Virus record (IMG/VR): IMGVR_UViG_3300016484_000447
Span: 23,773-87,772 of that record
DNA from: a virus
Lineage: Duplodnaviria; Heunggongvirae; Uroviricota; Caudoviricetes
Length of the DNA: 64,000 nt
Direction: 5' to 3' (one strand)
Position numbers and translations under genes: made by a program. Shown here piece after piece: positions 21,877-64,000 of this stretch; position 1 is the stretch's first letter; each line of letters opens with the position of its first letter. The notes beneath the pieces were generated by a model. That model was not told where the DNA came from, searched no databases, and saw only the letters and a list, made by a program, of their open reading frames with translations.

Positions 21877-24129
21877 TTACAGCGAACAGCTATCGCAGGC
21901 AGCAGCTTCCTGCTCTTGCGCCTTTTCCTCGACAATGCCAGTCGCGGAGTTGATGTAGTAGCGGGTCTTCATGCCCAGCTTGACGCGGAGAAGCCACTGT
22001 TCAACCAGTTCCTTCGCCGACACCTTCCGCTCCCCGTTGCCGTACTTGATGTACAGGTCAGCCGAGATAGCCTGTCCGGTGAAGCACTGCACCAGGGCGT
22101 ACACGAGGATCATGTCCTCGGTGGGGACATCCCACGCCATCTCGTACTTGTCCTTCAGTTCATCGTAGTCCGGGCAGATGAACAGGTTCTTGTTCACACC
22201 GGATGTCTTGATGACCTTGAACTCCCGGATGGGGTACAGACCGTTCGTGTGCCCGCCAGCCACAGAGGAAGACTCGCACGGCATGTGGGCTTCGAGAACG
22301 CTGAAACGAAGCCCGCCCAGCGCCATCATCCGCTTCCGAACGCCCTCCCAGTCCCGCTTCAGCTTGTAGCCGATCTTGTCCAGGGCTAGCCGATTCGCCG
22401 TGTCGATGGGAAGCCAGCCTTCCGCGTACTTCGTACTGCTCGCCCAGTCACACGCCCCACGCTCTTCTGCCAGACGCACAGCAGCTTTGTGCAAGCTGTA
22501 GCTGTGAAGTTCCGCCAGTTCTGCGATGTACAGCTTGCCCTCGGTCGAACTGTACTTCAGCCCGCGCTTCGCCATCGCATGAGCGAGGTTGGTGATCCCG
22601 ACGCCGATGGATCGACGCGCCCGTGCTGTGACTTCGAGGTGAGGGAACGGGTACTCCATCAGGTCGATCACGTTGTCGATCATCAGGGCGGCGTAGTACG
22701 CCACGTCCTCGTATTCCTCTTCGGACACTAGACCAGCAGCGATTGCCGCCAGAGAACAGAGCCCGATTTCACCGTCACGCTCGTAGGCCGACTTGTAAGA
22801 GTACAGTGCAGCCACGGACGAGAAGCCCTTCACCGGCAGGCCGATTTCTTGGCACAAGTTGGACAGGTAGATCGTGTCCTTGAACGGGGTGTGGCGGTTC
22901 ATCTCGAACGTGTTGTGTTCGTAGATTCGACCGTTCTCCACGGCTTCCGTCAGGAACGCGATTGCTAGTTCCCGGGCTTGCACCACAGTCTTCGGGATCA
23001 GCGGGTTGGCCTCAACCTTCGAGTATTCCGACAGGAACACTTGAGGGTCAGGATTGTACATCGCTTCGTGAAGCGCCGGGGCGTCCCCGTAGCTCACCAG
23101 CATCCAGGGCTCGTTCCGGGCCACGCGACGGGCAAACTCGGTGTTGTACCCCACGCTGTAGTCGATGTCCTTGATCCGCTTCTCAGGCAGCGTCTGCACG
23201 TTCTTCAGCTTGACCAGATCGAAGAACTCCGGGTCCAGCACGGTGAAGTGCATCGTCAGAGCCCCGCCGCGTCCAGCTTGCAGGTTTGCACCCACAGCCG
23301 CCTGCTGCACCTTGTAGTAGGGCAGCTTGCCCATGTGCTTGATCGCCCCGCGCCGCACCTTGTCACCCTTGCTACGGGTCTTCAGGTGAGAGCCGATGCC
23401 AGCCGATGCACAGGTCATCATGTAGGCAATGTGGTCAGACGCTGCCAGAGACGCCGCCGAGTCGTGGGTTGTCGATGTGCAGCACGATGCGTACTGCCGT
23501 TTCATGGTCCCCAGGTTCAGCGAGAACGGCGACGGCGGGTTGATCTTCTTCAGGCTGAAGTACGTGTACAGGCTCTTCACGTCGTTCATGCGCCGGTAGA
23601 GAGGCATCTTCGCCATGTTGCCCAGTGCCATACGCATGTACACGAACTGCGGCGTCTCGTAGCTCTTTCCGCCCACTCGGTCCACGATGGCGTACTTGTC
23701 CATCGTCTGCTTCGTCTCGGTCAGCGGAGCGTTGATGTCGCGGCTGTGGTCGATGAAGGTCTGGCAGAAGTCGAGTTCCTCGTCAGAGTAGCCCATTTCC
23801 TCCCAGTGACCTTGCGCAACCATCATGCGGTACATCTCCCGGACGGTAGGGATCGTCTCCCAGCTTCCGAAGATTTCCTTGTACAGCTTGCCCATGTACA
23901 GACGCCCAGCCATCTTTTGATGCGCCGTCGTCTCCATGTCCACGCAAGCCGCGATCATTGCCTTGTGCAGATCGTCAGTGGTCACGCCATCGTCACACTT
24001 CTTGGTCGCGGCCAGAACGACGGTAGACCAGTCCACGCCGATACCGCAGGCCCACTCAGCCCACTTGTTCAGCTTGTCAGGGTCGAACCACGCCGGTTGC
24101 CCGTTTCGCTTGATGACGGTACGAATCAT
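21877..24129 (-). CDS. nrdA: ribonucleotide reductase class Ia alpha subunit (with ATP-cone)
   Basis: 750 aa. N-terminal ATP cone (VIKRNG...FD..KL), catalytic-cysteine regions and C-terminal CxxC tail typical of NrdA. Confidence 0.9.
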   Translation of the reverse strand: MIRTVIKRNGQPAWFDPDKLNKWAEWACGIGVDWSTVVLAATKKCDDGVTTDDLHKAMIAACVDMETTAHQKMAGRLYMGKLYKEIFGSWETIPTVREMYRMMVAQGHWEEMGYSDEELDFCQTFIDHSRDINAPLTETKQTMDKYAIVDRVGGKSYETPQFVYMRMALGNMAKMPLYRRMNDVKSLYTYFSLKKINPPSPFSLNLGTMKRQYASCCTSTTHDSAASLAASDHIAYMMTCASAGIGSHLKTRSKGDKVRRGAIKHMGKLPYYKVQQAAVGANLQAGRGGALTMHFTVLDPEFFDLVKLKNVQTLPEKRIKDIDYSVGYNTEFARRVARNEPWMLVSYGDAPALHEAMYNPDPQVFLSEYSKVEANPLIPKTVVQARELAIAFLTEAVENGRIYEHNTFEMNRHTPFKDTIYLSNLCQEIGLPVKGFSSVAALYSYKSAYERDGEIGLCSLAAIAAGLVSEEEYEDVAYYAALMIDNVIDLMEYPFPHLEVTARARRSIGVGITNLAHAMAKRGLKYSSTEGKLYIAELAELHSYSLHKAAVRLAEERGACDWASSTKYAEGWLPIDTANRLALDKIGYKLKRDWEGVRKRMMALGGLRFSVLEAHMPCESSSVAGGHTNGLYPIREFKVIKTSGVNKNLFICPDYDELKDKYEMAWDVPTEDMILVYALVQCFTGQAISADLYIKYGNGERKVSAKELVEQWLLRVKLGMKTRYYINSATGIVEEKAQEQEAAACDSCSL

Positions 24130-25113: not shown

Positions 25114-25968
25114 TTACAGCGGCATTGCTTCGAGGATGGGCACGCCGTCCACGATGAGGCCCGTGCCGATGATCGGGCGCTTCAGGTTGGTGTTGTTGTA
25201 GGCAAACGCCAGCGAGTCGTCGTTGATGAGGCATCCGGTGTTCATCGCCCAGTACAGCCCGCGAGGGTTGGCCCAGTATTCGATTCCGAACTTCTCATGG
25301 TAGTGACCACACACGAAGGACATTCCCATTGCTTGCGACACGCGGACTGCGCTCGACAGCTTGCCGTGGTGGATGTACACGTCTTGACCATCCGGGAGGG
25401 TGATCGTCATGTCCATGTGCCACTTCCAGCCGTCTCCGACGCCCAGCACCTCGTTGTACGGCTTGATGTACCGTCGCGGGATGCCGTGATGCTTCGCCTT
25501 CCGGTAGACCATCGACCCGTGGTTGGAGTCAACCAGATCGACCACTGGGAACAGTTGCTCGACTTTGGCAATCACGGGGAGTGCCTTTTCGAGTTCCGGC
25601 CCGGCGTTGTCGAGGTCAGGGTCCGTGTCGTGGAAGGACATCGCGTGCTTGTCCAGTTCATCCCCGACGCAGATCACCCGTGTCGGCTCGTACCGCTTCT
25701 TCAGGCCCGCCAGGAACGGCAAGAGGCCGCTGTGGTGGTACGGAATGTGCATGTCCGAGATGAACAGGATGCGGGAGTTGTCATGCTCCTTCAGCACCTC
25801 GCCGATGTCCACCGATGCAGCCGCCGCTTCTGTCGGGATGATACCAACTCGACGGAGGTGGTCGCTGACAGTGGACTTCGGCTTCCTCAGTGCGTCAGCG
25901 ATCTGCCGCCAGGAGAGGTTGCCCGTGCTGGCGAGGACTTCTGCTTTCGCCTGCCATGTTTCATTCAT
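25114..25968 (-). CDS. calcineurin-like metallophosphoesterase with N-terminal HTH
   Basis: Carries the metallophosphoesterase motifs ISDMH, GDELDKH, GNHD-like region and GHYH. N-terminal 50 aa look like a helix-turn-helix domain. Confidence 0.65.
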   Translation of the reverse strand: MNETWQAKAEVLASTGNLSWRQIADALRKPKSTVSDHLRRVGIIPTEAAAASVDIGEVLKEHDNSRILFISDMHIPYHHSGLLPFLAGLKKRYEPTRVICVGDELDKHAMSFHDTDPDLDNAGPELEKALPVIAKVEQLFPVVDLVDSNHGSMVYRKAKHHGIPRRYIKPYNEVLGVGDGWKWHMDMTITLPDGQDVYIHHGKLSSAVRVSQAMGMSFVCGHYHEKFGIEYWANPRGLYWAMNTGCLINDDSLAFAYNNTNLKRPIIGTGLIVDGVPILEAMPL

Positions 25969-26554
25969 TGCTCGTAGCTCCTTTCAACTTCTCCTTCTTG
26001 TAGATTTCCACCAGTGCCTCACGACGTCTCTTGTCGTTCGACAGCGCACCAGAATTGTGCCCGAATTTCTCGCAGTGAGCAAGCACTTCAGATTTTTTGT
26101 GGCGCTTCATGAACGCGATTGCCCACTTCTCAGCAAGGGCATCCTCGAACGGAACACCGGAACGCTCTGCGTAGCTCTTGACCTTGTGGCAAGGCTTGCA
26201 GGCGAGAACCCAGTTACCGTTCGTGTTCAGGAGGTTCTGAAGGAACTTCCCAGCCGTCTCCCACGAGTTGCAGGAGCCAGCCATCTCGACGTGATCCACT
26301 TCGAGAGAGCTAGCAGAGAACATCTCCCCGCAGTAGTGGCACTTGCCCAGGCTCTTCGCCCGGCCCGTGTAGCCGTCAGGGGGCGGAACCATCTGGTCAC
26401 GCTTCCAGTCCAGCTTCGCGGGATACCGCTTCCACACTGCGCCTCGAATTCCGCCTCGCACCCACGCCCAGAAGGCCGCAGGCGTCTTCCAGATGTCCGG
26501 GAAGGCTTCCCAGGGTTCCTTATGTTCCATGTCGTTCGGAGTAACCCGCTCCAC
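25961..26554 (-). CDS. HNH endonuclease
   Basis: Motif CHYCG...EVDHV...N...LAC..CH (HNH with zinc ligands). 197 aa. Confidence 0.7.
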   Translation of the reverse strand: MERVTPNDMEHKEPWEAFPDIWKTPAAFWAWVRGGIRGAVWKRYPAKLDWKRDQMVPPPDGYTGRAKSLGKCHYCGEMFSASSLEVDHVEMAGSCNSWETAGKFLQNLLNTNGNWVLACKPCHKVKSYAERSGVPFEDALAEKWAIAFMKRHKKSEVLAHCEKFGHNSGALSNDKRRREALVEIYKKEKLKGATSNE

Positions 26555-27098
26555 TTCCGTTTAACGCTTTGATGGCATCTTCTCTGGCCTTGATGGCAAG
26601 GGCTTTTGCCAATTCCTCTCCGTACCGGCTTACGGAGAATGACTTACACCCACGCCTACCACTCAAAGTAATCCATACCGCCTTCCATCTCGGAGATTGA
26701 GTATGCTCGGCAACCCTACGAATACCTACCGTACCTGACGAGTTCGTGGCAGGCTTCTTGCGGTTCCTCGTGTTGACGCTCTGCCGCACCACTCTCAAAT
26801 TCTCTATGGTGTTGTTGAATGGGTTTCCGTCGATGTGATCCACAACGTTGGTAGGCTGGATGGTAATGCCGTTGAGGCTCAAGATTATGCGGTGGACGCT
26901 GTAGATTTTACCGTGGAGACGCGCCATCCATGCAGCCGGTGCTCCACTCTGCTTGTACATCTTTCTGCCAGCAGGTTCACCAGCAATTGCCACAAGGCGA
27001 CTCCCCCAAGCCCTGTCAACCTTCCACCGCAACCCGGACGGACTCGTCGGGTCGTAGTAGAACCAATCAGCCCAGTTAGGTGTTTGCTTCTCGGTCAA
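26520..27098 (-). CDS. HNH endonuclease (HNH_3-type, with AP2-like DNA-binding region)
   Basis: VDHIDGNPFNNTIENLRVV is an HNH_3 signature. C-terminal basic region. 192 aa. Confidence 0.6.
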   Translation of the reverse strand: MTEKQTPNWADWFYYDPTSPSGLRWKVDRAWGSRLVAIAGEPAGRKMYKQSGAPAAWMARLHGKIYSVHRIILSLNGITIQPTNVVDHIDGNPFNNTIENLRVVRQSVNTRNRKKPATNSSGTVGIRRVAEHTQSPRWKAVWITLSGRRGCKSFSVSRYGEELAKALAIKAREDAIKALNGSGAGYSERHGT

Positions 27099-28177
27099 TA
27101 CTCTACCCCCAGTCGCTTCATCACGTCCAGCACGTTCACCGGCTCTTCGTCCCGACTGCGCAGCATCCGCGCCAGGGTGAAGTTCTCCTGCATCACGTAC
27201 TTCCAGTCCACTTCGATTTCGTAGTCCTGTGCGTCAGGCTTCGGAATCTTCATGTCCTTCGGGTCTTCATAGCCCCGCCAGCCGATGATCTTCTTCGGCA
27301 AGGGGTACAGGGTTTGGTAGCCCTTGACCATCGCCTCAAAGGCTTCCTTGTCGTTCTTCGCGTCCTTGAGAACGTCGAAGGCGGACTTGTCAGCCCACTT
27401 CATCGCGGGGTTGGCGCTGTTGGCGAAGTAGTTGTCGGCGTCGTCACCGTTCATGACTTGGAAGTACAGCCACGCACGGCCACGTCCAGTCACCTTCTTC
27501 TTCTCCGCATTCCACGCCAGCCAGCCGTAGGCATCACCGTAGGAGTGCATTGTACCGCTGTCGCAGTGGTACAGATGACCCGGGACTTGGAAATAGTCCT
27601 TGTCGGTGAACGCCAGGATCAGCTTGTCCTTGTCGTCGCCGCTGGCCTTCCACTTCTTCCAGCCGTCTCGGGCGTCGATGGAACAGGCGTCGTCGGCCTC
27701 GATGCCTTCGACAATCGTGCAGGCGTGGTTCTTGATGAGGTAGTCCTTCATCGCTTCCAGATGCACGGGTCGCAGGGCACCTTCACGGTTGCCCTTGTAC
27801 TTGACGATGGTCGAGACATGCTCGCGGAAGACGACACCACGGCCAGAGTAGCCGTAGTGAACCTTGGTGCCAGTGGCTTCCTTGGCAGCGTTGATCTGCT
27901 GCTTCAGGGTGTGAAGCACCTTCGGGAGTTCTTCCGGCGTCTGCACGTCGATGATGTCGAACTCTTCCGGCGCCCGGCGCTGGCCCTCGCTCTTGGCAGC
28001 GTTGTACTCTGCCAGCCAGCCACCAGCTTTCTTCTTCCAGTGCCCCCAGAACTCCGTCCGGGTGGCGAACTCGTACTCGTCGCCGCTGGCCCGGTGGATG
28101 GCCTTGATCGTCCGCTCTTCACCGACAGAGCCTGCACTGTACAGCAGCGGGTCATAGTCGAAGCACAGCTTGGTCAT
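27095..28177 (-). CDS. 5'-3' exonuclease (T7 gp6-like / FEN family)
   Basis: Start at MTKLCFDYD (AAGGAG RBS). Segments LAFTDKDYF and GDDADN align with T7 gene 6 exonuclease (LAFTDS, GDDVMG). Confidence 0.55.
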   Translation of the reverse strand: MTKLCFDYDPLLYSAGSVGEERTIKAIHRASGDEYEFATRTEFWGHWKKKAGGWLAEYNAAKSEGQRRAPEEFDIIDVQTPEELPKVLHTLKQQINAAKEATGTKVHYGYSGRGVVFREHVSTIVKYKGNREGALRPVHLEAMKDYLIKNHACTIVEGIEADDACSIDARDGWKKWKASGDDKDKLILAFTDKDYFQVPGHLYHCDSGTMHSYGDAYGWLAWNAEKKKVTGRGRAWLYFQVMNGDDADNYFANSANPAMKWADKSAFDVLKDAKNDKEAFEAMVKGYQTLYPLPKKIIGWRGYEDPKDMKIPKPDAQDYEIEVDWKYVMQENFTLARMLRSRDEEPVNVLDVMKRLGVEY

Positions 28178-28344: not shown

Positions 28345-28389
28345 TGCACCTCCAATGCAAAAACCCCGCCCTTTTGGGCGGGGCCTGTG

Positions 28390-28809
28390 TTAGTGGGCGT
28401 TCAGCCCTTCTCCGTGAATACCGTGCCACGCCTTGTGATGGGCAGGGCATAGCCAGCGAACTTCAAGTGGTTTCAAGTAGTCGTCGTGATGCCCATGCAC
28501 GTCCACTGAGCCGCACTCTTCGCATGGCCCTGGGTTGAGCCTGCCATTCCGCACAGCGTTCCCGACAAGTACGTGTGCAGCACGCTTTACAGGGTTCTTT
28601 TCTCGATACCTGCGATGGTCTTCGAGGGTTTGACGACTGCCCCTCTCCCTATCGAAAGCGCGGTACTGTTCTAGCCTGTCAATTCGGTTGGATTTGACAT
28701 CTGTCTTAGTACATGCTTTGCACTTGTTGAGGTGCCCGTCAGCCATCCGAGGATGGCTGTAGTACTCCGATAGCGTCTTAACCTCTCCGCACTTGAAGCA
28801 CTTCTTCAC
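28390..28809 (-). CDS. HNH endonuclease (zinc-finger N-term)
   Basis: N-terminal CFKCGE...CKAC and C-terminal CEECG..DVHGHHDDY...WLCPAHH HNH motif. Confidence 0.6.
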   Translation of the reverse strand: MKKCFKCGEVKTLSEYYSHPRMADGHLNKCKACTKTDVKSNRIDRLEQYRAFDRERGSRQTLEDHRRYREKNPVKRAAHVLVGNAVRNGRLNPGPCEECGSVDVHGHHDDYLKPLEVRWLCPAHHKAWHGIHGEGLNAH

Positions 28810-31239: not shown

Positions 31240-31488
31240 TCAATGTAGTTTGTCATGAAGCCACGTTGCGATGATCGAGCCAAGGCCCGCCCCGACGCCA
31301 ATGACCAGGGCGATGACGCCCCAGCCGTTCTTGGCGACGGTTGACACAACGTAGACCTCGCACAGTGCCATCGCAATACTTGTGGGCAGAATCCACCAGT
31401 ATTTGCGATGCACAACGTTCAGTTGCTGGGCACTCTTCATGCCAACAAACAGAAAAGAAGTCCAGAATGCGATCACGTATTGAATCAT
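31240..31488 (-). CDS. small membrane protein (3 TM)
   Basis: 82 aa, strongly hydrophobic. Confidence 0.45.
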   Translation of the reverse strand: MIQYVIAFWTSFLFVGMKSAQQLNVVHRKYWWILPTSIAMALCEVYVVSTVAKNGWGVIALVIGVGAGLGSIIATWLHDKLH

Positions 31489-31931
31489 CTTGTCAGTAGG
31501 TACTCCTGCATGTTTGAAAGTATTTCAACAGAGTCTTCAACCCTCCCGAGCGTTAAGTTGCATCTTGCGCAAAGCAGCCCGCGTACTCTTCCCGTAGCAT
31601 GGCAGTGATCTATGTGGAGCGACTGCCCAGCCGGGCCATAGCCGTTAGGCTCTTGCTTGCAAATCTCGCATACGCCGTTAGCTCTCTCTAACATCTCTTG
31701 AAGCTCTTCAGGGCGCAGGCCAAGCTTGCGCGCCCTCGTAGCCCGTTGGCTTTGTTTTCTAGCCCTACGGAACTCTGGGTCGTCTGTGTACCGCTTGCGG
31801 CGGGAGGCTTCTTGTCGTGCATTTGTGCATCGCTTGCAGACCCGAGTCCTCCCGCCAGCACACTTTGAGTGCTTCGGGAAGTCCTCCAACGATTTAGACT
31901 CCCCGCAAGAGTTACACAGTCGAGTCAGCAT
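31485..31931 (-). CDS. recombination endonuclease VII (Holliday junction resolvase)
   Basis: N-terminal CxxC..C..C zinc finger plus CEIC...HIDHCH..G.VRGLLCARCN, the Endonuclease_7 signature. Confidence 0.75.
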   Translation of the reverse strand: MLTRLCNSCGESKSLEDFPKHSKCAGGRTRVCKRCTNARQEASRRKRYTDDPEFRRARKQSQRATRARKLGLRPEELQEMLERANGVCEICKQEPNGYGPAGQSLHIDHCHATGRVRGLLCARCNLTLGRVEDSVEILSNMQEYLLTR

Positions 31932-33513
31932 CTTCCTTCTGCACCACGATGTCCTGCACGCGGTTGCGGATCACGTCGAACGGCTCGTCAACCAGCAGCT
32001 TGCCGTCCTTGAAGATGACGCGCAGTTCGCCGCCAGCTTCTTCGTCCGGGGTCACGCTGTCGGACATGACGAACTTGCCGTCCACCAGATCGACACGCAT
32101 CAGGCCACGGGCCGACTTCTTGATGCCGCTGTCGGTCTTCGGGTCTTTGTACAGTTCGACCAGCTTGCCGTCCACCACAGCAGCCGTGGCCTTGACAGCC
32201 AGGGAGAGGGTGTCGCGGGTGACGTACTGGTAGGTGAACGAACCGACGCCGAAGACCACGTTGTTCGACGCAAAGTTGCGCTGTTGCAGGCGAGAGAAGA
32301 TTTCCTCTGCACGGTCCAGGGTGATCGAGTCACCGTAGATCAGGCCGATGGACGGGCTCAGTTCACGGTAGCCGAACTTGTTCACCGTGCCACCGAACTT
32401 CTCCCACAGCACCTCGATGGAGCCCTTGACTTCCTCTTCGGTCAGCGGGCTGACTTCGCCGGGAAGGTGGGGAGCCATCAGCGCCGCCTTGCTGAAGACG
32501 CCCTGCGGGGTGCGGACGATTTCGTCCTCGCGGTAGCCGCAGATGATCCGCACGGGATCGCCGCTGTCGGGGCGGACGACAACCTTGCCCGGCAGGAAGC
32601 CGTTGGGGCCACGCGCCTCGATTTCACCCTTCAGCGCCGGGAGGTACTCGGTCAGCACTTGCCAGTAGTCGATGGTATCGCTCACGATGGAGACGATGCC
32701 AGTCGGGTAGGCTTCGGTGATCCAGTAGCGGATCGTTTCCAGTTCACCATCGACAGCGATGCCCAGCGAGGTGACGCTGTGTTCCGACGCCGGGACACTG
32801 GTGCCGACGAGATAGCCGGTCGGGTAGCCGCTGTAGAACTTGTCCACGAAGCCCAGGGCAGCGATGGTGTCGGTGCCAGAGGACGACAGGAGGTGCCCGT
32901 AGCCAGACGCCGCCGCAGCTTGGCGACCCATGAGGCCGCGAGCCGAGAAGTCGTGGCACTGGAACGGAATGTGGTCACGGTTGCCCACCGTCTCGTCAGC
33001 GAAGCGGCGGCACAGGGTCAGGAACTGGTAGGCGGTGGTCGCCGAGGTGGTCACGCCCCAGCACTCCTGCGACAGCACCGTCTCGATGTACGTCACCAGC
33101 CATGCGAAGTCCTTGTGGGTGTTCTTCCACGTCGCCAGAGGCACCTTGAAGGGCACCTTGGAGCCTTCCGGCAGGGCCTTGATTTCCAGTGGCAGATAGC
33201 CCAGCTTGTGCAGCTTCTCGAAGTGTTCCATCGAGACGGCGCCGACGCCCAGGTAGCCTTCGACACGGGCCTTCCACTCGCCGATCACTTCCTTGAAGGG
33301 GCGCGAGAAGAACTCGTTGTTGAACTCGGCGATGATGAAGCCCTTGATGAAGGCTTGCATCCCGGCCCAGACGACGCGGCGTTCCGCGTCTTGGAACTGG
33401 CAGCGAGCGGCGCTGCGAGCGGTGATGTTGGCGTACAGCATGGTGGTGCCGTCGCGCATGAACTTCTTGTGCGAGAGCTTGTAGCCGTCAGCTTGTTCGA
33501 GGGGCTTGGTCAT
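31912..33513 (-). CDS. nicotinamide phosphoribosyltransferase family protein (NadV/NAMPT-like; candidate Namat)
   Basis: 533 aa with NAMPT family motifs throughout (the DG..M/YG..GT.. pattern, GYRG-like phosphoribosyl-binding regions, C-terminal FGxG). Adjacent to a Prs-like gene. Confidence 0.8.
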   Translation of the reverse strand: MTKPLEQADGYKLSHKKFMRDGTTMLYANITARSAARCQFQDAERRVVWAGMQAFIKGFIIAEFNNEFFSRPFKEVIGEWKARVEGYLGVGAVSMEHFEKLHKLGYLPLEIKALPEGSKVPFKVPLATWKNTHKDFAWLVTYIETVLSQECWGVTTSATTAYQFLTLCRRFADETVGNRDHIPFQCHDFSARGLMGRQAAAASGYGHLLSSSGTDTIAALGFVDKFYSGYPTGYLVGTSVPASEHSVTSLGIAVDGELETIRYWITEAYPTGIVSIVSDTIDYWQVLTEYLPALKGEIEARGPNGFLPGKVVVRPDSGDPVRIICGYREDEIVRTPQGVFSKAALMAPHLPGEVSPLTEEEVKGSIEVLWEKFGGTVNKFGYRELSPSIGLIYGDSITLDRAEEIFSRLQQRNFASNNVVFGVGSFTYQYVTRDTLSLAVKATAAVVDGKLVELYKDPKTDSGIKKSARGLMRVDLVDGKFVMSDSVTPDEEAGGELRVIFKDGKLLVDEPFDVIRNRVQDIVVQKEDADSTV

Positions 33514-33531
33514 TGGTCTGGTTCTCCTTGT

Positions 33532-34359
33532 TCAGATGATTCGGATGCGGGAAGTATAGCACTCCGGGACTTCCGGGGCTGTCATTCCGAGGTTTTGCAC
33601 GAAGATGATGTCGTATTTCGACAACAGTGCGTCGTAGCCCTTGGTGAACATGCCGTGCGTGACGTACAGGTTCAGTTCGCTGGGCCTTGCCGTTGCTCGG
33701 ATGGCATCGGCCACTGCCAGGAACGTCGCCCCGCCGTCGCACAGATCGTCCACGACACAGACTGACTTGTCAGCGATGTCGAACGGTTGGGCAGGAAGCC
33801 GCATACCCGTGATCTTGCCTTCAGGGTCGCGGACCTTGCTTGCACACAGAACCTTGGTCCCGATAGCAGCATCAGCCACTTGGTAGTGCTTGAAGACCTT
33901 CTTCTCGGCACCGGCGTCCGGGGCGACCAGCACGTCATGCACTGGCAGGTTGTAGGCGCACTCTTCCTGCGGCGTCACGCGCAGCTTGTCCACCAGAGCT
34001 TCCAGCACGGAACTGTGGGCGTCGTAGGTCGTGACCAGATCGAAGCCCAGGCTGTTCAGCATGACGCAGAACACCTTCAGTGCGTGGGCCTCGCCGGGTG
34101 AACAGCGGCGGTCTTGGCGGCTGTACGGGAAGTACGGGATCAGCAGCGTCCAGGCGCGGGCGCCAGCGTTCTTCACGATGTCAACCAGTTGAGCCAGAGC
34201 CACCAGATCGTCGTTGCCTTCCCAGCGAAGGATGACTTTCACCACTTCACCGACCAACACCCGCTCCGCGCAGGACTCGATCTTGACACCAGTCTCCCCA
34301 CAAGGGAACTTCCAGACCTTGACGCCGAGGTCGCGGCCAGCAACGCGGGCTGTCAGCAT
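33532..34359 (-). CDS. ribose-phosphate pyrophosphokinase family protein (Prs-like; candidate ADPR-PP synthetase Adps)
   Basis: 275 aa with Prs motifs (PYFPYSRQDR, VVDDLCDGGATF PRPP-binding loop). Confidence 0.8.
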   Translation of the reverse strand: MLTARVAGRDLGVKVWKFPCGETGVKIESCAERVLVGEVVKVILRWEGNDDLVALAQLVDIVKNAGARAWTLLIPYFPYSRQDRRCSPGEAHALKVFCVMLNSLGFDLVTTYDAHSSVLEALVDKLRVTPQEECAYNLPVHDVLVAPDAGAEKKVFKHYQVADAAIGTKVLCASKVRDPEGKITGMRLPAQPFDIADKSVCVVDDLCDGGATFLAVADAIRATARPSELNLYVTHGMFTKGYDALLSKYDIIFVQNLGMTAPEVPECYTSRIRII

Positions 34360-34682
34360 TGGCGCACCTCAACATCGTAGGGGATGTAGCCGTCGCCGAT
34401 CCAGTGCAGCGTGACACTGCCTTCGCCGCTGGCGATGTTCAGGGCGAAGAACGTCTGGCCGTCTTCGTAGTGCGTGGACGACACGGCACTGGTGATGCCG
34501 ACATCCACAAGGTCGGCCAGATCACCGTCGATGCGGTCGAAGCGCGAACGCTCGCTCAGGCTTTCGACACGGATGTTGCCGCCGTCTTGGAACTGGAACT
34601 CGATGAAGTCCCGGACGTGATCGTCACCCATCTCGGCTCCAATGTGGGTCGTGATTCGACCGACGAATTCAGAATGGTTCAA
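34353..34682 (-). CDS. hypothetical protein
   Basis: 109 aa acidic protein. Overlaps neighbours by a few nt. Confidence 0.4.
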   Translation of the reverse strand: MNHSEFVGRITTHIGAEMGDDHVRDFIEFQFQDGGNIRVESLSERSRFDRIDGDLADLVDVGITSAVSSTHYEDGQTFFALNIASGEGSVTLHWIGDGYIPYDVEVRQC

Positions 34683-35046
34683 GCTCTTTCTCCTTGTTCG
34701 TGAACTTCAGTTGGGCGATGCGCAAGTCATCGACTGTCATCGTTGTGTACCCGTGCTTGTTGAGCCATTGTATCACAGGTCTTGGCAGAACCTTGACAAA
34801 ATTTGTCTTCCCGTCGCGTCGAACAGTCGTCACGTTCGGGAAGTCGTCTGGTAGCTTGGTCAGGTACGAGAGCGCCAGTATAACATGCTTTTTCCCCGAA
34901 AGGATAGCCTGCATACAGGCAAGGAGAAGCTTGCTGGCTCCGTCCTCGCCCATCGGGCGCAGAGACGACAGGTACTCTTTCGAGGGCCTTCCGTTTCTCA
35001 CGCTCATTGTAGCACCATCAGTGGCATTCAGCCCAGTTGCGGCCAA
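34669..35046 (-). CDS. hypothetical protein (start uncertain)
   Basis: 125-aa ORF. The first ATG overlaps the DNA polymerase end by 29 nt; alternative start at 35007. Confidence 0.35.
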   Translation of the reverse strand: MAATGLNATDGATMSVRNGRPSKEYLSSLRPMGEDGASKLLLACMQAILSGKKHVILALSYLTKLPDDFPNVTTVRRDGKTNFVKVLPRPVIQWLNKHGYTTMTVDDLRIAQLKFTNKEKELEPF

Positions 35047-38000
35047 GCATGTAGCCTGCCGACAACTCGACGTTCAGCTTGTAGTACCGACCAGCCTCAA
35101 CGACAGCTTCGGTCGCCAGTTCCCCGGCCCGGCAGTAGCCGACGAAGTAGCCCTTCGGCCCCTTCATCACGTCACTCCACCGCTTGCCCGTGGCTTCCTC
35201 TTCAGCAGCCTTGAATGCAGCGGCAGCGGCCTTCGCATCCTTGGCTTCCTTCGAGTCTTCCATCTTCCCCGTCTCTTCGTTCTTGGTCTGCCATTCGCTC
35301 ACAGGGAACGTCTTGAACTTGACCAGTGAACGCTTGACTTCAAGCTGGGCCTCGTCATGGTAGGCGATCAGTTGCTGGCAGAACTCCTTCTCCTTCCAGT
35401 TGTCCCGGAAGAAATCAACTGCCATCCCTTCAGCCTTCAGCTTACGGTCGTGCAACACCATCGCCCGCTTCGCGCAGATCACCCCCGCCGACTGGAAAGC
35501 CGTGTTGATGACGTTACCCTTGCTTCGGATCGGCAGCTTGCGGTTGTCCAGGCCCTTCAGAAACTTCTTCTGGCCCGTCGTCTCCCAATACTGCTGCATC
35601 TTCTCCTTCAGTTCCTTCAGCGGCGCCGCCTGAGTCCAGAAGGTGTCGAAGATGGTCTGAGCATCTTCCAGCGAACAGCCGATGGTCTTGGCGACCCGGG
35701 GCGGCTGTGCATTGTAGCTGCAATTACCAGTCAAAGTCAGAACTCCGCCCTGCCGGATGAAGAACGACTCGCAGGCAGTGGACAGGCAGAATACGTCAGT
35801 CTTACGTGTAGGTGTGAAGTCCCCAGTCTGATACCCGGTGTAAGCAGACCGGCTTCCATTGATAGTTGCCATGCCTTCACCATCAATCCTGACAGTTGTC
35901 TTCATCCCTTCGAGGGCCATAGCTACAGCTATAGCGTCTGCAATGTTTCCAGGCCGCTGGCGGACAACTACTGCATTGATTACCCCTTGGCGACCATCGG
36001 CTTGCCAGAATGCGAGGATGAAGTTCATCCTGCTAACCCCATCTAGGCCGAGAACGTATTGCACCCAGTCGAATTCGTGCTTCCCCTTTCCGTAGAATCC
36101 GTGGCGTTTCGCCATTGCGCGGAAGTCCTCTGGGTCAATTCTGTACTCATTCATGCCACCGTTAGAGTACACAGTGAAGTTGACCCGCGCCATGCGTAGA
36201 GCCACCTCAACATCATCGCAAAACTTCTTCTGTCCCACGTTTGCGATAACACCAAGCTTTTCCCCGTGCCTGTTCTGCCTACATGGCAGAGACTCTGACC
36301 ACTTCCAGTATCCATCTGCCAGCAGCCATCCGATAAGTGCAGCGTCGTTCTGGACAGTGCCCCCGTTTCGCATCGGTGACGAGTTTAGGATAGACGATGC
36401 AGTGTTCAACTCGTCTGTGTACACAAGCCTCACCTCGTCAGAGTAGGCGTTCTTCGCCAGCCACCTGTGGTCTTCCGTTGCTTCGACACTCCAACGCTTA
36501 TTGCCGACTAACCCAACATCCGCGTCAGCGTAGAAGTGGCGCCCTGTAACTTCCGTCCAGTACATCTCCTTGTTTGTAGCATGGTAGCCAAGAACAAAAT
36601 CTCCGACCCCAATCTCGTTGAAAGTCTTCCACCCGTCCCTCGTCAATACATCTGTGTTGTCTACTGGCAAGCACCCATACTTGACGTTCTTCGCAGTCGA
36701 GCGCGGGAATTCCCGGCCCAGAATCTCCGAAATCATCCGCGCCAGCACACTATGGCAGTCGTTTGGCTTTTCAGCCGTCAACGACACCCCGTACTCTGGA
36801 CCGCCCTTGTAGCGGTAGACATAGTGGGCTTCGATCTTCGCTTCCAGGGAGTCGAAGTCATAGCCAAGCTGGACGAAGCCATCATCGACATCGACACCGA
36901 ATTGAGCCCGCATGTTCTTGCCGTACAGCGAAGTCACGCGAGGGATGTTGGCGACTAGCCGATGCTTGAAGCGTGAAGTCCCTGCACCGCAAGAGTCAGC
37001 AGGAGTAGGAATGCGGCCATCTTCTGCGATGCGTTCAGCAGCCAGGAAGCCCTTGCCCGCGAATTCATCATCATCCTCAAGTTCATCAGGGTCAACGCCA
37101 CCGCCAAGGATGGAATTGCGACGGTGAGTATAGGTCAGGTACTCCGAGACAAGCTTGGCGTGGGGGAACTTGTCAGCAAGCTCCAGCAGCGCCGGGTCGA
37201 TTTCCTTCTCCATCCCGACCGTGATCGTCGGGTTCGTGTAGACCTTCAGGGGCCGCTTCAGATCGTGCTTCAGCAGCTTTTCCCGCAGGCGGGAAGGGAC
37301 GGTGTTCAGTTCCTCGCAGCGGTCGCGGCAGAACGGGCTGTTGATCGTCTGCTCGACGTACCGTTCAACCGTCTCTGCGAACTTCTCGGGGGACAGCTTC
37401 TTCTTCTTGCTGTCGCACGTCAGGTCACGCTCCTTGTACTGAGTCGGGCGCCAGCCCATCTCGACAAGCCAGCCCTTGATGTGCGTCGTGTCCTTGACGG
37501 TGGCAGGTTCGTGCGTCTTGACAGGCACGTCAGCCGCCATCGGCAGGCTCCACGCTTTGCCGAAGATGTTGGCAACCCACCTCCCGTCAACCTGCTCCAA
37601 AGTCCCGCCGTGCTTCTCGGCGAACTTCTGCATGTGGCTCGATGGGTTCCCATTCTTGAGAAACTGAATCTTCGGCGGGAGGAATGCCTTCAACTTGGTC
37701 ACGCCCATCGGCTTCTCAGGCAGCAGCGGCTCGACGGTCTGACGGATGGACTCCATCTTCTCGTCAAGGTCGCGGACGTTGGCCTGGGCGAGTTCTTGGT
37801 CGAACCAGAAACCTCGGTGAGAGCCTCGCGTCACGATGTCGCGGACGCATTGCTCCAGGGTAAACGTGTCGCTCCAGTCCCACTCCCCGACTTCCTCCAG
37901 CAACGCCCAGTAGAGCTTGACGTTGACGTGGCAGTCACGCTCGTTGTAGTCGAGCATCTCGGGGTGGTACTGCGCGAACTCAGCACCACGGGGCGCGTTC

Positions 38001-38485
38001 CACGGGATCAGGCCAAGGTCAACGGCCCGCTGGCGCCAGTCGATCTTCTCCAGGCCCAGGCGTTTGCCCCATTCGTCCAGCGAGTGCCCGCCATAGCGGT
38101 CAGGGTTCAGGGCCTTTGACCAGACCAGCGTATCCACGATTTCGACTGGTTGCCCGTCGATGGTGCATTGGTCTGCAATCTCGTAGTCGATGTCGAAGTA
38201 CAGCTTCAGCACCAACAGGTCGTAGTCGATGATGTTGTGGCCGATCACCGTCTTCAGCTTCTTGAAGAGAGGGACGAAGCCAGTTCGCATCTCTTCCTCG
38301 CCAGCAAAGCGATACACCCGACCCGTGTCGATGTCGATGATGACCGCACACCAGACGCGGAAGATAGGCTTCAGCTTGAACGGGGCGGCGCGGTAGTCGA
38401 TGGTTGTGTGGTCGAGAAGCCCGTTGGCTTCCACGTCAAATACGCCCCTCATAGGGTCTTCTACTCCTTCAGGTAGGCGGTGCAA
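35018..38485 (-). CDS. family A DNA polymerase (T7 gp5-like, 3'-5' exo + pol) interrupted by an intein
   Basis: Exo motifs FDVEANGL, YNERDCHV. Pol motifs DFDSLE(A), motif B RSTAKNVKYG|...|CSYNAQ, motif C HDE-like. The 1155 aa include a 317-aa insertion. Confidence 0.85.
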   Translation of the reverse strand: MHRLPEGVEDPMRGVFDVEANGLLDHTTIDYRAAPFKLKPIFRVWCAVIIDIDTGRVYRFAGEEEMRTGFVPLFKKLKTVIGHNIIDYDLLVLKLYFDIDYEIADQCTIDGQPVEIVDTLVWSKALNPDRYGGHSLDEWGKRLGLEKIDWRQRAVDLGLIPWNAPRGAEFAQYHPEMLDYNERDCHVNVKLYWALLEEVGEWDWSDTFTLEQCVRDIVTRGSHRGFWFDQELAQANVRDLDEKMESIRQTVEPLLPEKPMGVTKLKAFLPPKIQFLKNGNPSSHMQKFAEKHGGTLEQVDGRWVANIFGKAWSLPMAADVPVKTHEPATVKDTTHIKGWLVEMGWRPTQYKERDLTCDSKKKKLSPEKFAETVERYVEQTINSPFCRDRCEELNTVPSRLREKLLKHDLKRPLKVYTNPTITVGMEKEIDPALLELADKFPHAKLVSEYLTYTHRRNSILGGGVDPDELEDDDEFAGKGFLAAERIAEDGRIPTPADSCGAGTSRFKHRLVANIPRVTSLYGKNMRAQFGVDVDDGFVQLGYDFDSLEAKIEAHYVYRYKGGPEYGVSLTAEKPNDCHSVLARMISEILGREFPRSTAKNVKYGCLPVDNTDVLTRDGWKTFNEIGVGDFVLGYHATNKEMYWTEVTGRHFYADADVGLVGNKRWSVEATEDHRWLAKNAYSDEVRLVYTDELNTASSILNSSPMRNGGTVQNDAALIGWLLADGYWKWSESLPCRQNRHGEKLGVIANVGQKKFCDDVEVALRMARVNFTVYSNGGMNEYRIDPEDFRAMAKRHGFYGKGKHEFDWVQYVLGLDGVSRMNFILAFWQADGRQGVINAVVVRQRPGNIADAIAVAMALEGMKTTVRIDGEGMATINGSRSAYTGYQTGDFTPTRKTDVFCLSTACESFFIRQGGVLTLTGNCSYNAQPPRVAKTIGCSLEDAQTIFDTFWTQAAPLKELKEKMQQYWETTGQKKFLKGLDNRKLPIRSKGNVINTAFQSAGVICAKRAMVLHDRKLKAEGMAVDFFRDNWKEKEFCQQLIAYHDEAQLEVKRSLVKFKTFPVSEWQTKNEETGKMEDSKEAKDAKAAAAAFKAAEEEATGKRWSDVMKGPKGYFVGYCRAGELATEAVVEAGRYYKLNVELSAGYMLGRNWAECH
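35723..36673 (-). mobile_element. intein with LAGLIDADG homing-endonuclease domain inserted in PolA motif B
   Basis: The insertion begins with Cys right after KYG of motif B (CLPVDNTDVLT...). It contains two LAGLIDADG motifs (LIGWLLADGYW, ILAFWQADGRQG) and ends ...TLTGN followed by Cys (+1). The extein junction restores YG|CSYNAQ, matching polI motif B YG-S...Q. Confidence 0.7.
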
Positions 38486-38646
38486 CGCACCTTCTTCATG
38501 CCGTCAGGGTCAACGCCGATGACGGGCATGGTTTTGAATTCGAGGTCGGAACAGTCCTCCCCAGCCCTGTAGCACGAACAACACATCCGCCCAGAGGGGC
38601 GGTGCGTCATCGGCTCGACTTCACAGTCTAGCACGGGTTCGTTCAT
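38461..38646 (-). CDS. small Cys-rich protein
   Basis: 61 aa from MNEPVLDCE...CCSCY...C. Its ATG overlaps the stop of the HD gene (ATGA). Confidence 0.3.
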   Translation of the reverse strand: MNEPVLDCEVEPMTHRPSGRMCCSCYRAGEDCSDLEFKTMPVIGVDPDGMKKVRCTAYLKE

Positions 38647-39068
38647 GGCGCAGACAGGTAGGCGATGTACTCCGCGTACTTCCTGACACGGCGCATGTCG
38701 TTTCGCTTCATGCTGTTGTGCAGGTTGCTCAAGGAGTCGCACAGCTTGACCTTCAAGGCCAGCGGGTTCGACTTGACTCGGAACAGGTAGTCCGAGCGGC
38801 TCTCGCCTTCTCGCTTGGTCAGAGCCACCACGGCATCCACGATGTCATCATCGAAAAGAGCCCGCAGAACAGGCTCAGTCATCGTCGTGTCTTCGAGGAT
38901 GTCGTGAAGGTTGGCGATGATCTTCAGTCGCTCATCACCCGGGAAGTGGTTTCCGACGCTACCTCGCACATGGGCGATGTGCGTCGTGTAGGGCCACTCC
39001 CCGTACATCTGACCGGCGTGAAACTTCGTTGCGAGATGCTCTGAAAGTTCGAGGTCGGTCATCTGCAT
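38643..39068 (-). CDS. HD-domain phosphohydrolase
   Basis: H..H...HD pattern (TTHIAHV ... NLHDILEDT ... D), 141 aa. Confidence 0.55.
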   Translation of the reverse strand: MQMTDLELSEHLATKFHAGQMYGEWPYTTHIAHVRGSVGNHFPGDERLKIIANLHDILEDTTMTEPVLRALFDDDIVDAVVALTKREGESRSDYLFRVKSNPLALKVKLCDSLSNLHNSMKRNDMRRVRKYAEYIAYLSAP

Positions 39069-43009: not shown

Positions 43010-44806
43010 TCAATACTCGACAGGCGGTTGCTTTGCGAGCCAATCGTCCTTGTCGTACATGGTGTGGGTCACGTTGTCGTAGTAGTATTCACCAGCAACG
43101 CCTGTGTGGCCCGTCCAGCGGATTTTACTCGCCTTCATCCGCGTCGTGTTGCGCTCAATCGGGTCTTCTGCTTCCTTGTTGCGTGTGAACAACAGGTTGC
43201 AGGCGCCAGACTTGAAGATCGAGCTAGAACCTTGCATGTCCTCTTCAAACAGGTCTGCACCCGTCGAGTTGGCCTGCTTGCCACCTTGGCTCTTGCGGAC
43301 GTGGTTGACGTTGATGAAGATGACATCGTGGCTCTTCACCATGCCCTTCATCCACTTCAGGAACGTCGCCTGCTCTTCGATAGGGAGCCCGTCGAGGATG
43401 TCTTGCAGAGGGTCGAGGATGATGAGTTGGCAACCGCAAGCGATCACCAGTTCTTCGATCTTCGCCTTCATCGACTCCAGGCCACCGTCCCGGTCTTCGA
43501 TCAGGTAGAAGCGTTGCTCCCCGTTCTCCTTGAAGTACAGGTTGCGCTCGGCTTCCATGATGTCAGGCCGCGCCAGGAACTCCAGCTTCTCTTCGACGGA
43601 CTCGATCAGGTCGATCTTCCTGCCGACGTGACGCGACAGTAGCTTCGTGCCGTACTGCCCGACATCCGACTCCAACGTGACGATGCCGGGCTTGTACGGA
43701 CTGTTGAAAATCCAGTAGTACGTGCATTCGTCAACGATGGTGGACTTGCCAGTGCCAGACGCAGACCCCAGGTTGATGATGGTCTTGAGCGGAATGCCGC
43801 CAGCCATCAGCCGCTGAAGTTTGTGCATGAAACGGGGCAGGGGCACCTTCGGAGCCGCCGCAGCTTCACGGATGCGGTTTGCCACTGCGCCAGAGCCGAC
43901 AATTCCGTCAGGCGTCCAGGGTTTCGCGGCCCAGTAATCGCTCAGGAACTCCCGCTCTTTCCCGATGGCGTTGCCAGCCTTGTCCACCACGTAGTCGTCG
44001 GCATCCTTGTAGCGCATCGTCATGATGTACGCCTTCCCCTTGGGAAGCACCTTGGCGATCTTCTCCGCTGCCTCTCGACCGGGGTCGTCACTGTCCATGC
44101 AGACGATGATCTTCTCGAAACGCTCGAAGAATGCGTACTGGGCTTGAACCTGCTTCCACGCACCCCCTTCGCCGAGGGTAGAACACACGACAGCGGGGAC
44201 ATCGTAGTCCTTGCCTCGCCGGGTGATGTCATCCTTCAGCATTTGGTACGTGTTCAGAAGCTTCGTCTCCCCGCCGACGATCAGGCAGACCTTGGCCTGC
44301 GAGGTGAAGCGGAACTGCCCCACCATGTCGCATTCCTTGCCCACCTTGCCGGGGGATTGCGAGAAGTCCTTCGGGAAACGCCGAACTCGGTAGCCCACCA
44401 GTTGCCCGTCGATTGTCGTCGGGAAATACTGGGCGCAGGGCTCGCCAGTCTCGGCATCGTACTCGTACCGGACTCCGAACCAGCGGCTAGTTTCGTCACG
44501 GATTCCACGGTAGCCGTGCCCAGCGAGGCCCGTCATCTCCTTGATTTCTTGCTGCTCTTCAGGCGTTAGTGCCTCTCGTGTCATCAGAACCTCTTCATCT
44601 TGTTGTTCTTGATCGTCCCACCCCATCTCAGCCCTGTGGGCGTCTGAGGGGATGGTGAAGCCGCACGCCCAGCAGTGGGCGCCGTTACCCGGCCCGTACA
44701 CATGCAGGTTGTTCCCAGACGAATCCCCGCCAGCCCTGCGGCAACGCGGGCAGGCAGTCTTGTGTTCGTAGCTTGTGTCGATGCCGTACTTTTCGGCCAG
44801 TGACAT
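43010..44806 (-). CDS. bifunctional primase-helicase (T7 gp4-like)
   Basis: N-terminal Cys4 zinc-binding domain (CPRC...CWAC), TOPRIM region (CMDSDDPGREAA), DnaB-family Walker A GSASGTGKST and Walker B IILDPLQD. Confidence 0.85.
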   Translation of the reverse strand: MSLAEKYGIDTSYEHKTACPRCRRAGGDSSGNNLHVYGPGNGAHCWACGFTIPSDAHRAEMGWDDQEQQDEEVLMTREALTPEEQQEIKEMTGLAGHGYRGIRDETSRWFGVRYEYDAETGEPCAQYFPTTIDGQLVGYRVRRFPKDFSQSPGKVGKECDMVGQFRFTSQAKVCLIVGGETKLLNTYQMLKDDITRRGKDYDVPAVVCSTLGEGGAWKQVQAQYAFFERFEKIIVCMDSDDPGREAAEKIAKVLPKGKAYIMTMRYKDADDYVVDKAGNAIGKEREFLSDYWAAKPWTPDGIVGSGAVANRIREAAAAPKVPLPRFMHKLQRLMAGGIPLKTIINLGSASGTGKSTIVDECTYYWIFNSPYKPGIVTLESDVGQYGTKLLSRHVGRKIDLIESVEEKLEFLARPDIMEAERNLYFKENGEQRFYLIEDRDGGLESMKAKIEELVIACGCQLIILDPLQDILDGLPIEEQATFLKWMKGMVKSHDVIFINVNHVRKSQGGKQANSTGADLFEEDMQGSSSIFKSGACNLLFTRNKEAEDPIERNTTRMKASKIRWTGHTGVAGEYYYDNVTHTMYDKDDWLAKQPPVEY

Positions 44807-63313: not shown

Positions 63314-63812
63314 TTACGCAGATTTTGGAACGAAATTTACAAGGGCGTCGTAAACTCCATCTCTCAGGTTTGGCCTGTGCTTATCTGCGAGAGTCAGAAT
63401 GGTAGCCCTCTTCTCCGCGTAGTACGCAGCGGGCCTCTCATGCTTGTATGGGAGCCTCAAGGCATTGTTCAACTCTGTAGGCAGTAGGCAGCAGGTGTCG
63501 GGACTGTAGACTTTGGCGCCAGTGCTGAGAAGGTCTTTGTCTACCTGCCAGTCCCTGTCCCACCACATAGGTTGGACGATCAAGAATTCGCAGAACTCTT
63601 GAAAGTTGGCGAAACCGAATTCGACACCTGTGTAGGCCCTACCGCCAGGGTAACGCTGTGAAGACCCACCAACGGTAGTCCTCGCTTTGATCTGGTGCCA
63701 CAGCCTTCCAAATCTGGTGAGAGTGGACTTGCCGTTGAGCTTAAAGCTCTGGACATATCCTTCATCACCGACTGCCCAAAAGTCTAAGTAGTGCATGGAG
63801 ACTTTGTTTGTC
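63314..63812 (-). CDS. hypothetical protein in lower-GC segment
   Basis: 166 aa from MTNKVSMHY. GAAGGAAG RBS. Preceded by GCCGCCCTTGAGGCGGC hairpin. ~50% GC versus ~63% elsewhere. Confidence 0.4.
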
Positions 63813-63849
63813 ATAGCTTCCTTCAAGTATAAAGCCGCCTCAAGGGCGG

Positions 63850-64000
63850 CTGTCGTCACTCTGCGTAGTGCTTCCTGTATCGCTCTTCGGCGCACTCCAC
63901 GCACACTCTGCAACGCTTGGCAACGTTGAACATCGTGTTCTTGCAGTCGGAACAGGTGTTCATGTACTTTCCAGGGGCATACCCGAAGTCCTTCAAAGTT
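63850..64000 (-). CDS. partial gene (3' end), C-terminal zinc ribbon; start beyond window
   Basis: Frame open to the window edge. C-terminus ...YMNTCSDCKNTMFNVAKRCRVCVECAEERYRKHYAE* (CxxC...CxxC). Confidence 0.35.

Follow-up and report, generated by a model that had tools for sequence, protein, structure and literature searches.

The family-A DNA polymerase gene of a Caudoviricetes virus (IMG/VR record IMGVR_UViG_3300016484_000447, positions 23,773 to 87,772) carries an in-frame insert of 317 codons in the middle of one of its catalytic motifs. The question raised by this locus is whether the insert is an intein, a permanent domain of the polymerase or an intron that is removed at the RNA level. 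The 64,000-nucleotide stretch that was analysed is called the window, and the polymerase open reading frame (ORF) occupies positions 35018..38485 of its minus strand. The insert is best explained as a genuine intein in the O-helix of a T7-like replicative polymerase, one that harbours a double-motif LAGLIDADG endonuclease, which is probably active; we assign this reading a probability of roughly 0.9. A first-pass annotation, made from the sequence alone, had proposed a LAGLIDADG intein splitting motif B of this polymerase, and the proposal is upheld by an empty allele, the splicing blocks, the predicted fold, a sporadic distribution and a foreign base composition. The gene is divided as follows.

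35018..38452, minus strand: intein-containing family-A (T7-like) DNA polymerase precursor gene, from the ORF and its start codon; 1144 codons plus stop
36674..38452, minus strand: N-extein, residues 1-593, ending ...RSTAKNVKYG; equivalents of T7 R518, K522, Y526 and G527, first half of the O-helix
35723..36673, minus strand: intein, 317 residues, 35.4 kDa; identified by its absence from a 99%-identical allele, AlphaFold2, Foldseek and guanine-plus-cytosine (GC) content
35018..35722, minus strand: C-extein, residues 911-1144 plus stop, starting CSYNAQPPRVAKTIG; second half of the O-helix (Y530 equivalent), then motif C (HDE)

The interrupted polymerase and its empty-site allele

The insert comprises precursor residues 594-910 (CLPVDNTD...VLTLTGN), between ...RSTAKNVKYG and CSYNAQPPRVAKTIG. 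The coordinates proposed earlier, for a 317-residue insertion running from Cys1 to Gly-Asn and followed by Cys+1, are exact. A natural empty-site allele is the strongest evidence for an intein. Searching with the whole polymerase revealed the polymerase of a metagenomic phage (P0002) with a length of 827 residues, which equals 1144 minus 317, and with a junction that reads KYG-CSYNAQ. The spliced window protein differs from it at 7 of 827 residues (99% protein identity). The nucleotide alignment of the P0002 gene (L004 10001-12484; ENA ERZ4198739) with the window gene has no gaps when the 951 nt are left out, and the 151 nucleotide differences (93.9% identity) result in just these 7 amino-acid changes. 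The insert is also missing from the closest named phages. Aeromonas phage phiA047 (Plateaulakevirus, 57% identity) reads KYA/CSYGAQ, the slash marking the insertion point, and the Pakpunavirus phages match in two pieces with 72% coverage.

Near the insertion site, the last two N-extein codons show two synonymous changes relative to the empty allele, TAC GGT to TAT GGG. The 180 nt upstream of the site (36674-36853) contain 20 mismatches to L004 where 10.9 are expected, about twice the gene average (Poisson P ~0.009, which loses significance once the number of windows is taken into account). Such an excess could represent a co-conversion tract or drift of the target site.

The host protein qualifies as a T7-like family-A polymerase, with a 3'-5' exonuclease and the polymerase motifs A, B and C; motif B takes the form RxxxKxxxYG..Y. 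The spliced sequence matches T7 DNA polymerase (E 6e-21), the top-ranking protein in the PDB, and the profile of the polymerase family matches T7 and Klenow at E 1e-82. The Pfam DNA_pol_A match of the window polymerase scores 30.7 bits, under the curated cut-off of 34.3. The start codon is likely the ATG at ORF codon 12 (window position 38452), with a predicted protein opening MRGVFDVEANGLL, because this start agrees with the N-termini of homologues and with a database gene call. The latter (P0001, 1144 residues, from an 87.9-kb metagenomic contig) is 100% identical to the window precursor. The start at 38452 therefore gives a precursor of 1144 residues and a spliced product of 827 residues (94.3 kDa), correcting the earlier values of 1155 and ~838.

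The insertion point lies between the equivalents of T7 G527 and F528 and splits the O-helix (motif B, fingers). Across the splice junction, the restored motif aligns with T7 polymerase as R518-STA-K522-NVK-Y526-G527/C(F528)-S-Y530. The pattern by which motif B had been recognized, R..AK...YG.S...Q, is not the standard one; based on T7, it is R518-xxx-K522-xxx-Y526-G527/F528-x-Y530. The O-helix of T7 polymerase holds the residues touching the incoming deoxynucleoside triphosphate (dNTP). Since the intein splits this helix, the precursor should be inactive until it is spliced.

Splicing and endonuclease domains

A search with the insert (phmmer, exhaustive, against 1.84 billion cluster representatives) yielded 1157 representatives at E<=1e-3. 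Of these, 404 reach E<=1e-10, and the best stands at 1e-106. All matches are internal to larger proteins of 340-2200 residues. These numbers, together with the embedding in larger proteins, place the intein call far beyond chance. Residue conservation was counted in 134 full-length representatives of the family. The splicing blocks and the endonuclease are located as follows, in the order of the protein.

36632..36673, minus strand: splicing block A (CLPVDNTDVLTRDG); Cys1, the putative N-terminal nucleophile; P3, L10 and G14 invariant or nearly so
36455..36496, minus strand: splicing block B (RWSVEATEDHRWLA); Thr66 (B:7), His69 (B:10), Trp71 (B:12)
35834..36358, minus strand: LAGLIDADG homing-endonuclease domain, about intein residues 106-280, from predicted helices, Foldseek and Pfam LAGLIDADG_3
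36305..36337, minus strand: LAGLIDADG motif 1 (LIGWLLADGYW); Asp120 catalytic as judged by conservation
35984..36019, minus strand: LAGLIDADG motif 2 (ILAFWQADGRQG); Asp226 catalytic as judged by conservation
35750..35797, minus strand: splicing block F (DVFCLSTACESFFIRQ); Cys296 at F:4, no His at F:13
35720..35743, minus strand: splicing block G (VLTLTGN/C); Thr315 (G:5), Gly316 (G:6), Asn317 (G:7), Cys+1

The core residues of an intein are all present in the window copy: the block A Cys, the block B TxxH (T66-E-D-H69 at B:7-B:10), the C-terminal Asn and the +1 Cys. In the family, Cys1 (A:1), Thr66, His69, Trp71 and Cys296 are each conserved in 134/134 representatives, and Gly316 and Asn317 in 133/134 each. 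Slightly lower values were found for Thr315 (131/134), Q308 (127/134) and T299 (125/134). The +1 residue is always a nucleophile, Cys in 65 members, Ser in 41 and Thr in 28, with no other residue at this position.

The predicted fold is that of a HINT domain interrupted by an endonuclease. The AlphaFold2 model of the insert, built from a 91-sequence alignment, reaches a pLDDT of 96.6 and a pTM of 0.93, and its top Foldseek matches in the PDB are all inteins. TliVMA (2.8e-14), PI-PfuI (1.1e-12) and PI-SceI (1.4e-11) are leading, with PhoVMA and PI-TkoII also among the foremost (range 3e-14 to 1e-9). The family profile matches further solved inteins, namely Spl DnaX (6e-5), AceL NrdHF (1e-4), RecA (3e-3) and gp41-1 (8e-3), and the Pfam Intein_splicing model matches 3 of 20 family members.

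The two LAGLIDADG strings reported before are located at intein residues 113-123 (LIGWLLADGYW) and 219-230 (ILAFWQADGRQG). In the model, helices 111-120 and 212-226 are each followed by a beta-strand, and both are closed by an acidic residue and a Gly (LLAD120G and WQAD226G). Position 120 is D in 123/134 and E in 9/134 members, with G121 in 131/134; position 226 is D in 70/134 and E in 63/134, with G227 in 134/134. The other conserved endonuclease residues, Q148, R185, Q239, G242 and G256, are all intact in the window copy. Free-standing LAGLIDADG enzymes (I-DmoI, I-Tsp061I and I-SceI) are found by Foldseek at E 3e-7 to 5e-5 over ~180 columns, the value for I-DmoI being of the order of 1e-7. 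Pfam LAGLIDADG_3 matches 14 of 20 family members, the window copy not being among them. On the basis of its conserved residues and its distribution, the embedded double-motif endonuclease is probably active.

Some observations weigh against this picture of a working intein. The usual assisting residues of class 1 inteins are missing: Gly316 takes the place of His at G:6, Cys296 that of Asp at F:4, and a Phe that of His at F:13. Inteins functioning without them are documented, these residues being common and not defining (PMC5050341, PMC7891396). The window insert alone has no match in Pfam, NCBIfam or the PDB sequences, and the relationship is therefore visible only by family-level profiles or structure prediction. 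When the insert by itself was the query of a word-indexed search for homologues, even the identical protein, which the collection contains, was not returned; this is put down to a limitation of the index. Finally, degenerate versions of the endonuclease occur in close relatives, so that its activity is not guaranteed.

Gly316 had been called atypical and suspected of affecting the splicing chemistry. With its presence in 133 of the 134 representatives it is instead a trait of the family, and there is no sign of impairment: the homologous intein of the Bethlehem RDF protein, which also ends in Gly-Asn, splices completely, and its G316H variant does so markedly more slowly (Kelley et al. 2016, PMC5050341). 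According to the same study, phage class 1 inteins often have no penultimate His. A compact intein of 317 residues that dispenses with this His might be of interest to protein engineers.

That the window protein splices is supported by analogy with the homologous Bethlehem RDF intein (PMC5050341), and from the residues above we infer a reaction path of class 1 type. Translation would yield an inactive precursor of 1144 residues (130 kDa), with the dNTP-binding helix split at the equivalents of T7 G527 and F528. Cys1, aided by Thr66 and His69, would undergo an N-to-S acyl shift at the Gly593-Cys594 bond, and the thioester would then be handed to Cys+1. Cyclisation of Asn317 would free the intein without a penultimate His, Gly occupying that place in this intein lineage. 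An S-to-N shift would finally create the Gly-Cys peptide bond of an 827-residue polymerase reading RSTAKNVKYGCSYNAQ, whose junction is identical to that of the natural allele lacking the intein. In co-infections, the released 35-kDa intein would be expected to cut polymerase alleles that lack the element, at a target spanning the insertion site (AAGAACGTCAAGTACGGT/TGCAGCTACAATGCACAA in the empty allele). A candidate cleavage site, taken from the empty allele L004, lies near AAGTACGGT/TGCAGCTAC. Repair from the intein-bearing copy would spread the element by homing.

Distribution, related inteins and rival readings

The distribution of the intein was surveyed in the 120 nearest polymerase clusters. 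The motif-B site is empty in 104 of them and holds a full intein in nine. In five others (P0010, P0011, P0012, P0016 and P0064) the motif-B intein is only ~250 residues long, as the first endonuclease half (hidden Markov model (HMM) positions ~115-205) is deleted while the splicing blocks are all retained. These short versions resemble stages in a natural loss of the endonuclease on the way to mini-inteins. In two clusters, a related intein that likewise ends in GN occupies a second site (PNDCH/). With near-identical filled and empty alleles on one side and half-deleted endonucleases on the other, an invasion-decay cycle becomes visible within one polymerase lineage.

Further intein sites are present in the same polymerase lineage (P0004, P0055 and P0115). 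One, PND[CV]H/C...SGN/[ST], is located ~20 residues upstream of motif B, and another reads ESHY/C...TGN/C. P0115 (1376 residues) contains two inteins in one polymerase.

Within the whole family, 101 of the 134 representatives reside in the PolA O-helix, at five adjacent positions, and the other 33 in other proteins. In T7 numbering, 67 are inserted between residues 527 and 528, 16 between 526 and 527, 12 between 524 and 525, five between 523 and 524 and one between 528 and 529. Judged from these positions, the O-helix is an intein hot spot. Phage genes for RNR-beta, portal and tape-measure proteins harbour distant relatives.

The base composition of the intein is foreign to its gene. Its GC content is 52.9%, and 60.6% at third codon positions (GC3), compared to 59% and 78% in the exteins. 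It is the lowest-GC stretch of 951 bp in the 64-kb window (mean 59.9 +/- 2.8%). The strong GC3 deficit suggests that the element has not been resident for long.

The intein is an ordinary member of a large phage intein family that has already been studied. DNA polymerase I is among the known intein hosts (PMC4760082), and actinophage inteins have been catalogued in phosphoesterase, portal, tape-measure and RNR-beta genes (bioRxiv 10.1101/2025.01.02.630785). The intein of Bethlehem gp51 (RDF/phosphoesterase), called MP-Be gp51, is homologous to the family over its whole length (family HMM E 4e-31). By BLASTP, just the C-terminal ~80 residues align with the window intein (30% identity, E 3e-4). 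Both have 317 residues, Cys1, Cys at F:4, Thr at G:5, a Gly-Asn end and a LAGLIDADG endonuclease, which in the Bethlehem intein is toxic in E. coli (Kelley et al. 2016, PMC5050341). The Bethlehem intein differs in its phosphoesterase/RDF host, in the Val instead of Trp at B:12 and in its end, HLTGN/S, with Ser and not Cys at +1.

Other members of the family were identified in the PolA of cultured phages. Those of the Escherichia Phapecoctavirus phages (nieznany, ukendt, nepoznato and AV126) are 35% identical over the full length and occupy the same site (KYG/C...TLTGN/C). The inteins of the Pseudomonas Flaumdravirus phages KIL1-5 are 32% identical over the full length, with the KIL1 site four residues upstream in the O-helix (K522-T/C), and those of Vibrio phages VnaP and VPMCC14 are 25-27% identical, again over the full length. 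The polymerases that host these inteins are divergent (43% identity for Phapecoctavirus). In all these records the gene is labelled as a plain DNA polymerase and the intein is unannotated. The polymerase genes of the window phage, of Phapecoctavirus, of Flaumdravirus and of several Vibrio phages should thus be marked as intein-containing. In vB_PsyM_KIL1, the polymerase coding sequence (L003 1237-4344) is annotated as a two-piece join with the intein in frame. This polymerase stops just after motif C (...SFHDES*), the usual C-terminal ~120 residues being missing, and no continuation was found within 2.6 kb downstream.

Among the solved inteins, PI-SceI (1vde), PI-PfuI (1dq3), TliVMA and PhoVMA (7qss-7qsu) and PI-TkoII (2cw7) have the same architecture, a HINT domain interrupted by a double-motif LAGLIDADG enzyme. 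Their sequence identity to the window intein is 8-15%, at a Foldseek E of 1e-9 to 3e-14 and a TM of ~0.6-0.68. The window intein is smaller (317 versus 360-540 residues) and has the non-canonical Cys F:4 and Gly G:6, with no His at F:13.

That the insert is no intein at all, but a permanent polymerase domain or the reading frame of an in-frame intron removed at the RNA level, is extremely improbable. The lack of a curated intein model among the single-sequence matches of the insert would fit such a view. However, the insert is dispensable to a polymerase of 99% identity and to 104 of the 120 close relatives, which rules out the conserved PolA subdomain named at the outset as an alternative. 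The O-helix is split between catalytic residues, the splice-junction residues are all invariant, and the fold combines HINT and LAGLIDADG. The intron was dropped as a candidate: an Rfam scan of 34500-39000 at E<=1 detected no group I or II intron, its one hit being a chance miRNA match. That the intein can still splice but has lost its endonuclease activity, and is a harmless, vertically inherited passenger and not a homing element, is unlikely. The half-deleted endonucleases in 5 of the 14 motif-B inteins of the nearest polymerases indicate that decay occurs in this lineage. The window copy, in contrast, has kept all of its conserved endonuclease residues, from D120, G121, Q148 and R185 to D226, G227, Q239, G242 and G256; the domain is modelled at high confidence, and the GC3 deficit speaks against a long residence.

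The other alternative concerns the chemistry. A set of features that had been overlooked, namely Cys for Asp at F:4, Trp at B:12, Thr at G:5 and the missing His at F:13, includes the Trp-Cys-Thr (WCT) triplet, the mark of class 3 inteins (Tori et al. 2010, PMC2807308). The triplet is present in the family (Trp B:12 in 134/134, Cys F:4 in 134/134 and Thr G:5 in 131/134), and the signature C-[VL]-P..., T..H[RK]W, WC..T, TGN/[CST] extends to shorter relatives and to the two-intein proteins. Class 3 inteins such as MP-Be DnaB, Msm/Mch DnaB-1 and AceL NrdHF (PMC2807308) share the triplet, the association with phages and the LAGLIDADG endonuclease with the window intein. They differ from it in having no N-terminal nucleophile and, at +1, nearly always Ser or Thr, whereas the window intein has Cys+1 and a Cys1 that is invariant (134/134). 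With Cys, Ser or Thr expected to be absent from position 1 of a class 3 intein, membership of class 3 was rejected. The invariance of Cys1 points to selection on this residue, as would fit the first step of a class 1 reaction. Cys296 is invariant to the same degree, which suggests that it has a further function and may activate where Asp usually does, relay the acyl group or serve redox control. The intein might leave the plain class 1 route, with Cys296 attacking the N-terminal junction as in class 3 or relaying the acyl group from Cys1 to Cys+1, or with Cys1, Cys296 and Cys+1 forming a redox switch; we regard this as distinctly doubtful. Thr at G:5 is reported to be highly conserved in class 3 only, and the class 3 AceL NrdHF intein also has no His at F:13 and G:6 (PMC7891396). 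Three of 37 WCT inteins have Ser1 or Cys1, and their mechanism was left open by Tori et al. (PMC2807308). For the redox option, a published class 3 DnaB intein is presented as a sensor of oxidative stress (PMC6195587). On the other side, class 3 is operationally defined by the absence of an N-end Cys together with a Cys at C2:4 (PMC7891396), which leaves the window intein outside it. The homologous Bethlehem RDF intein, with Val-Cys-Thr and Cys1, is assigned to class 1 (PMC5050341), and the known class 1 inteins that have Cys at F:4 are polyphyletic (PMC3196547). Toward canonical DnaB inteins of class 3 in the PDB, the family profile shows no special affinity (E ~2). Extended to the whole clade, the idea becomes that of more than 1000 phage clusters at 50% identity, with Cys1, WCT and Gly-Asn, splicing by a hybrid Cys296 route or gated by redox state through three active-site cysteines, a proposal with long odds. 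If true, the window intein would be an extant example of the class 1 ancestor in phages to which the origin of class 3 inteins has been traced by proposal, and it would make the maturation of a phage polymerase conditional.

Surrounding genes and other mobile elements

The polymerase sits in a block of replication and nucleotide-metabolism genes. Its neighbours in the window are a NAPRTase-family gene, a PRPP-synthetase-like gene and a deoxynucleoside monophosphate kinase. In the syntenic empty-site genome L004, a T7 gp4-like primase-helicase (Toprim_2 + AAA_25) is located upstream of the polymerase. The nicotinamide/nicotinate phosphoribosyltransferase-family gene (31912-33513, minus strand; Pfam NAPRTase) and the PRPP-synthetase-like gene (33532-34359, minus strand; Pribosyltran_N) lie directly downstream of the polymerase block, and the pair looks like a phage NAD+ salvage module. 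Nowhere else does the DNA of the window resemble that of a named phage; the match here is to Pseudomonas phage Psxphi15 (75% identity). Long antisense ORFs of up to 679 residues, among them 31726-33765 and 37124-38119 on the plus strand, overlap the real minus-strand genes and were rejected as an artefact of ~60% GC sequence with GC-rich third positions.

Three free-standing HNH genes had been listed in the first-pass annotation, of which two are confirmed by Pfam.

25961-26554, minus strand: free-standing HNH gene (Pfam HNH)
26520-27098, minus strand: free-standing HNH_3 + AP2 gene (Pfam), adjacent to the former and slightly overlapping it
63314-63913, minus strand: HNH candidate, a 199-residue ORF in a low-GC patch, without a Pfam match

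The last one may be the third gene of that list; its similarity is weak (26% identity over 111 residues) and is to a KIL1 gene annotated as 'HNH endonuclease' beside the polymerase. The product of the 26520-27098 gene is 38% identical to an HNH_3 gene that lies elsewhere in L004, after the primase-helicase. This ~600-bp HNH_3 gene (L004 5637-6209) separates the primase-helicase from the gene that follows. The window, 93-96% identical to L004, does not have it at the matching place (window ~43013-43057 compared with L004 5609-6206). The heavy load of selfish elements suggested earlier is a reasonable description. Additional presence/absence differences of 370-580 bp between the window and L004 are found at ~31428-31931, ~28384-28801 and ~26518-27099, and together these differences point to a rapid turnover of small mobile genes.

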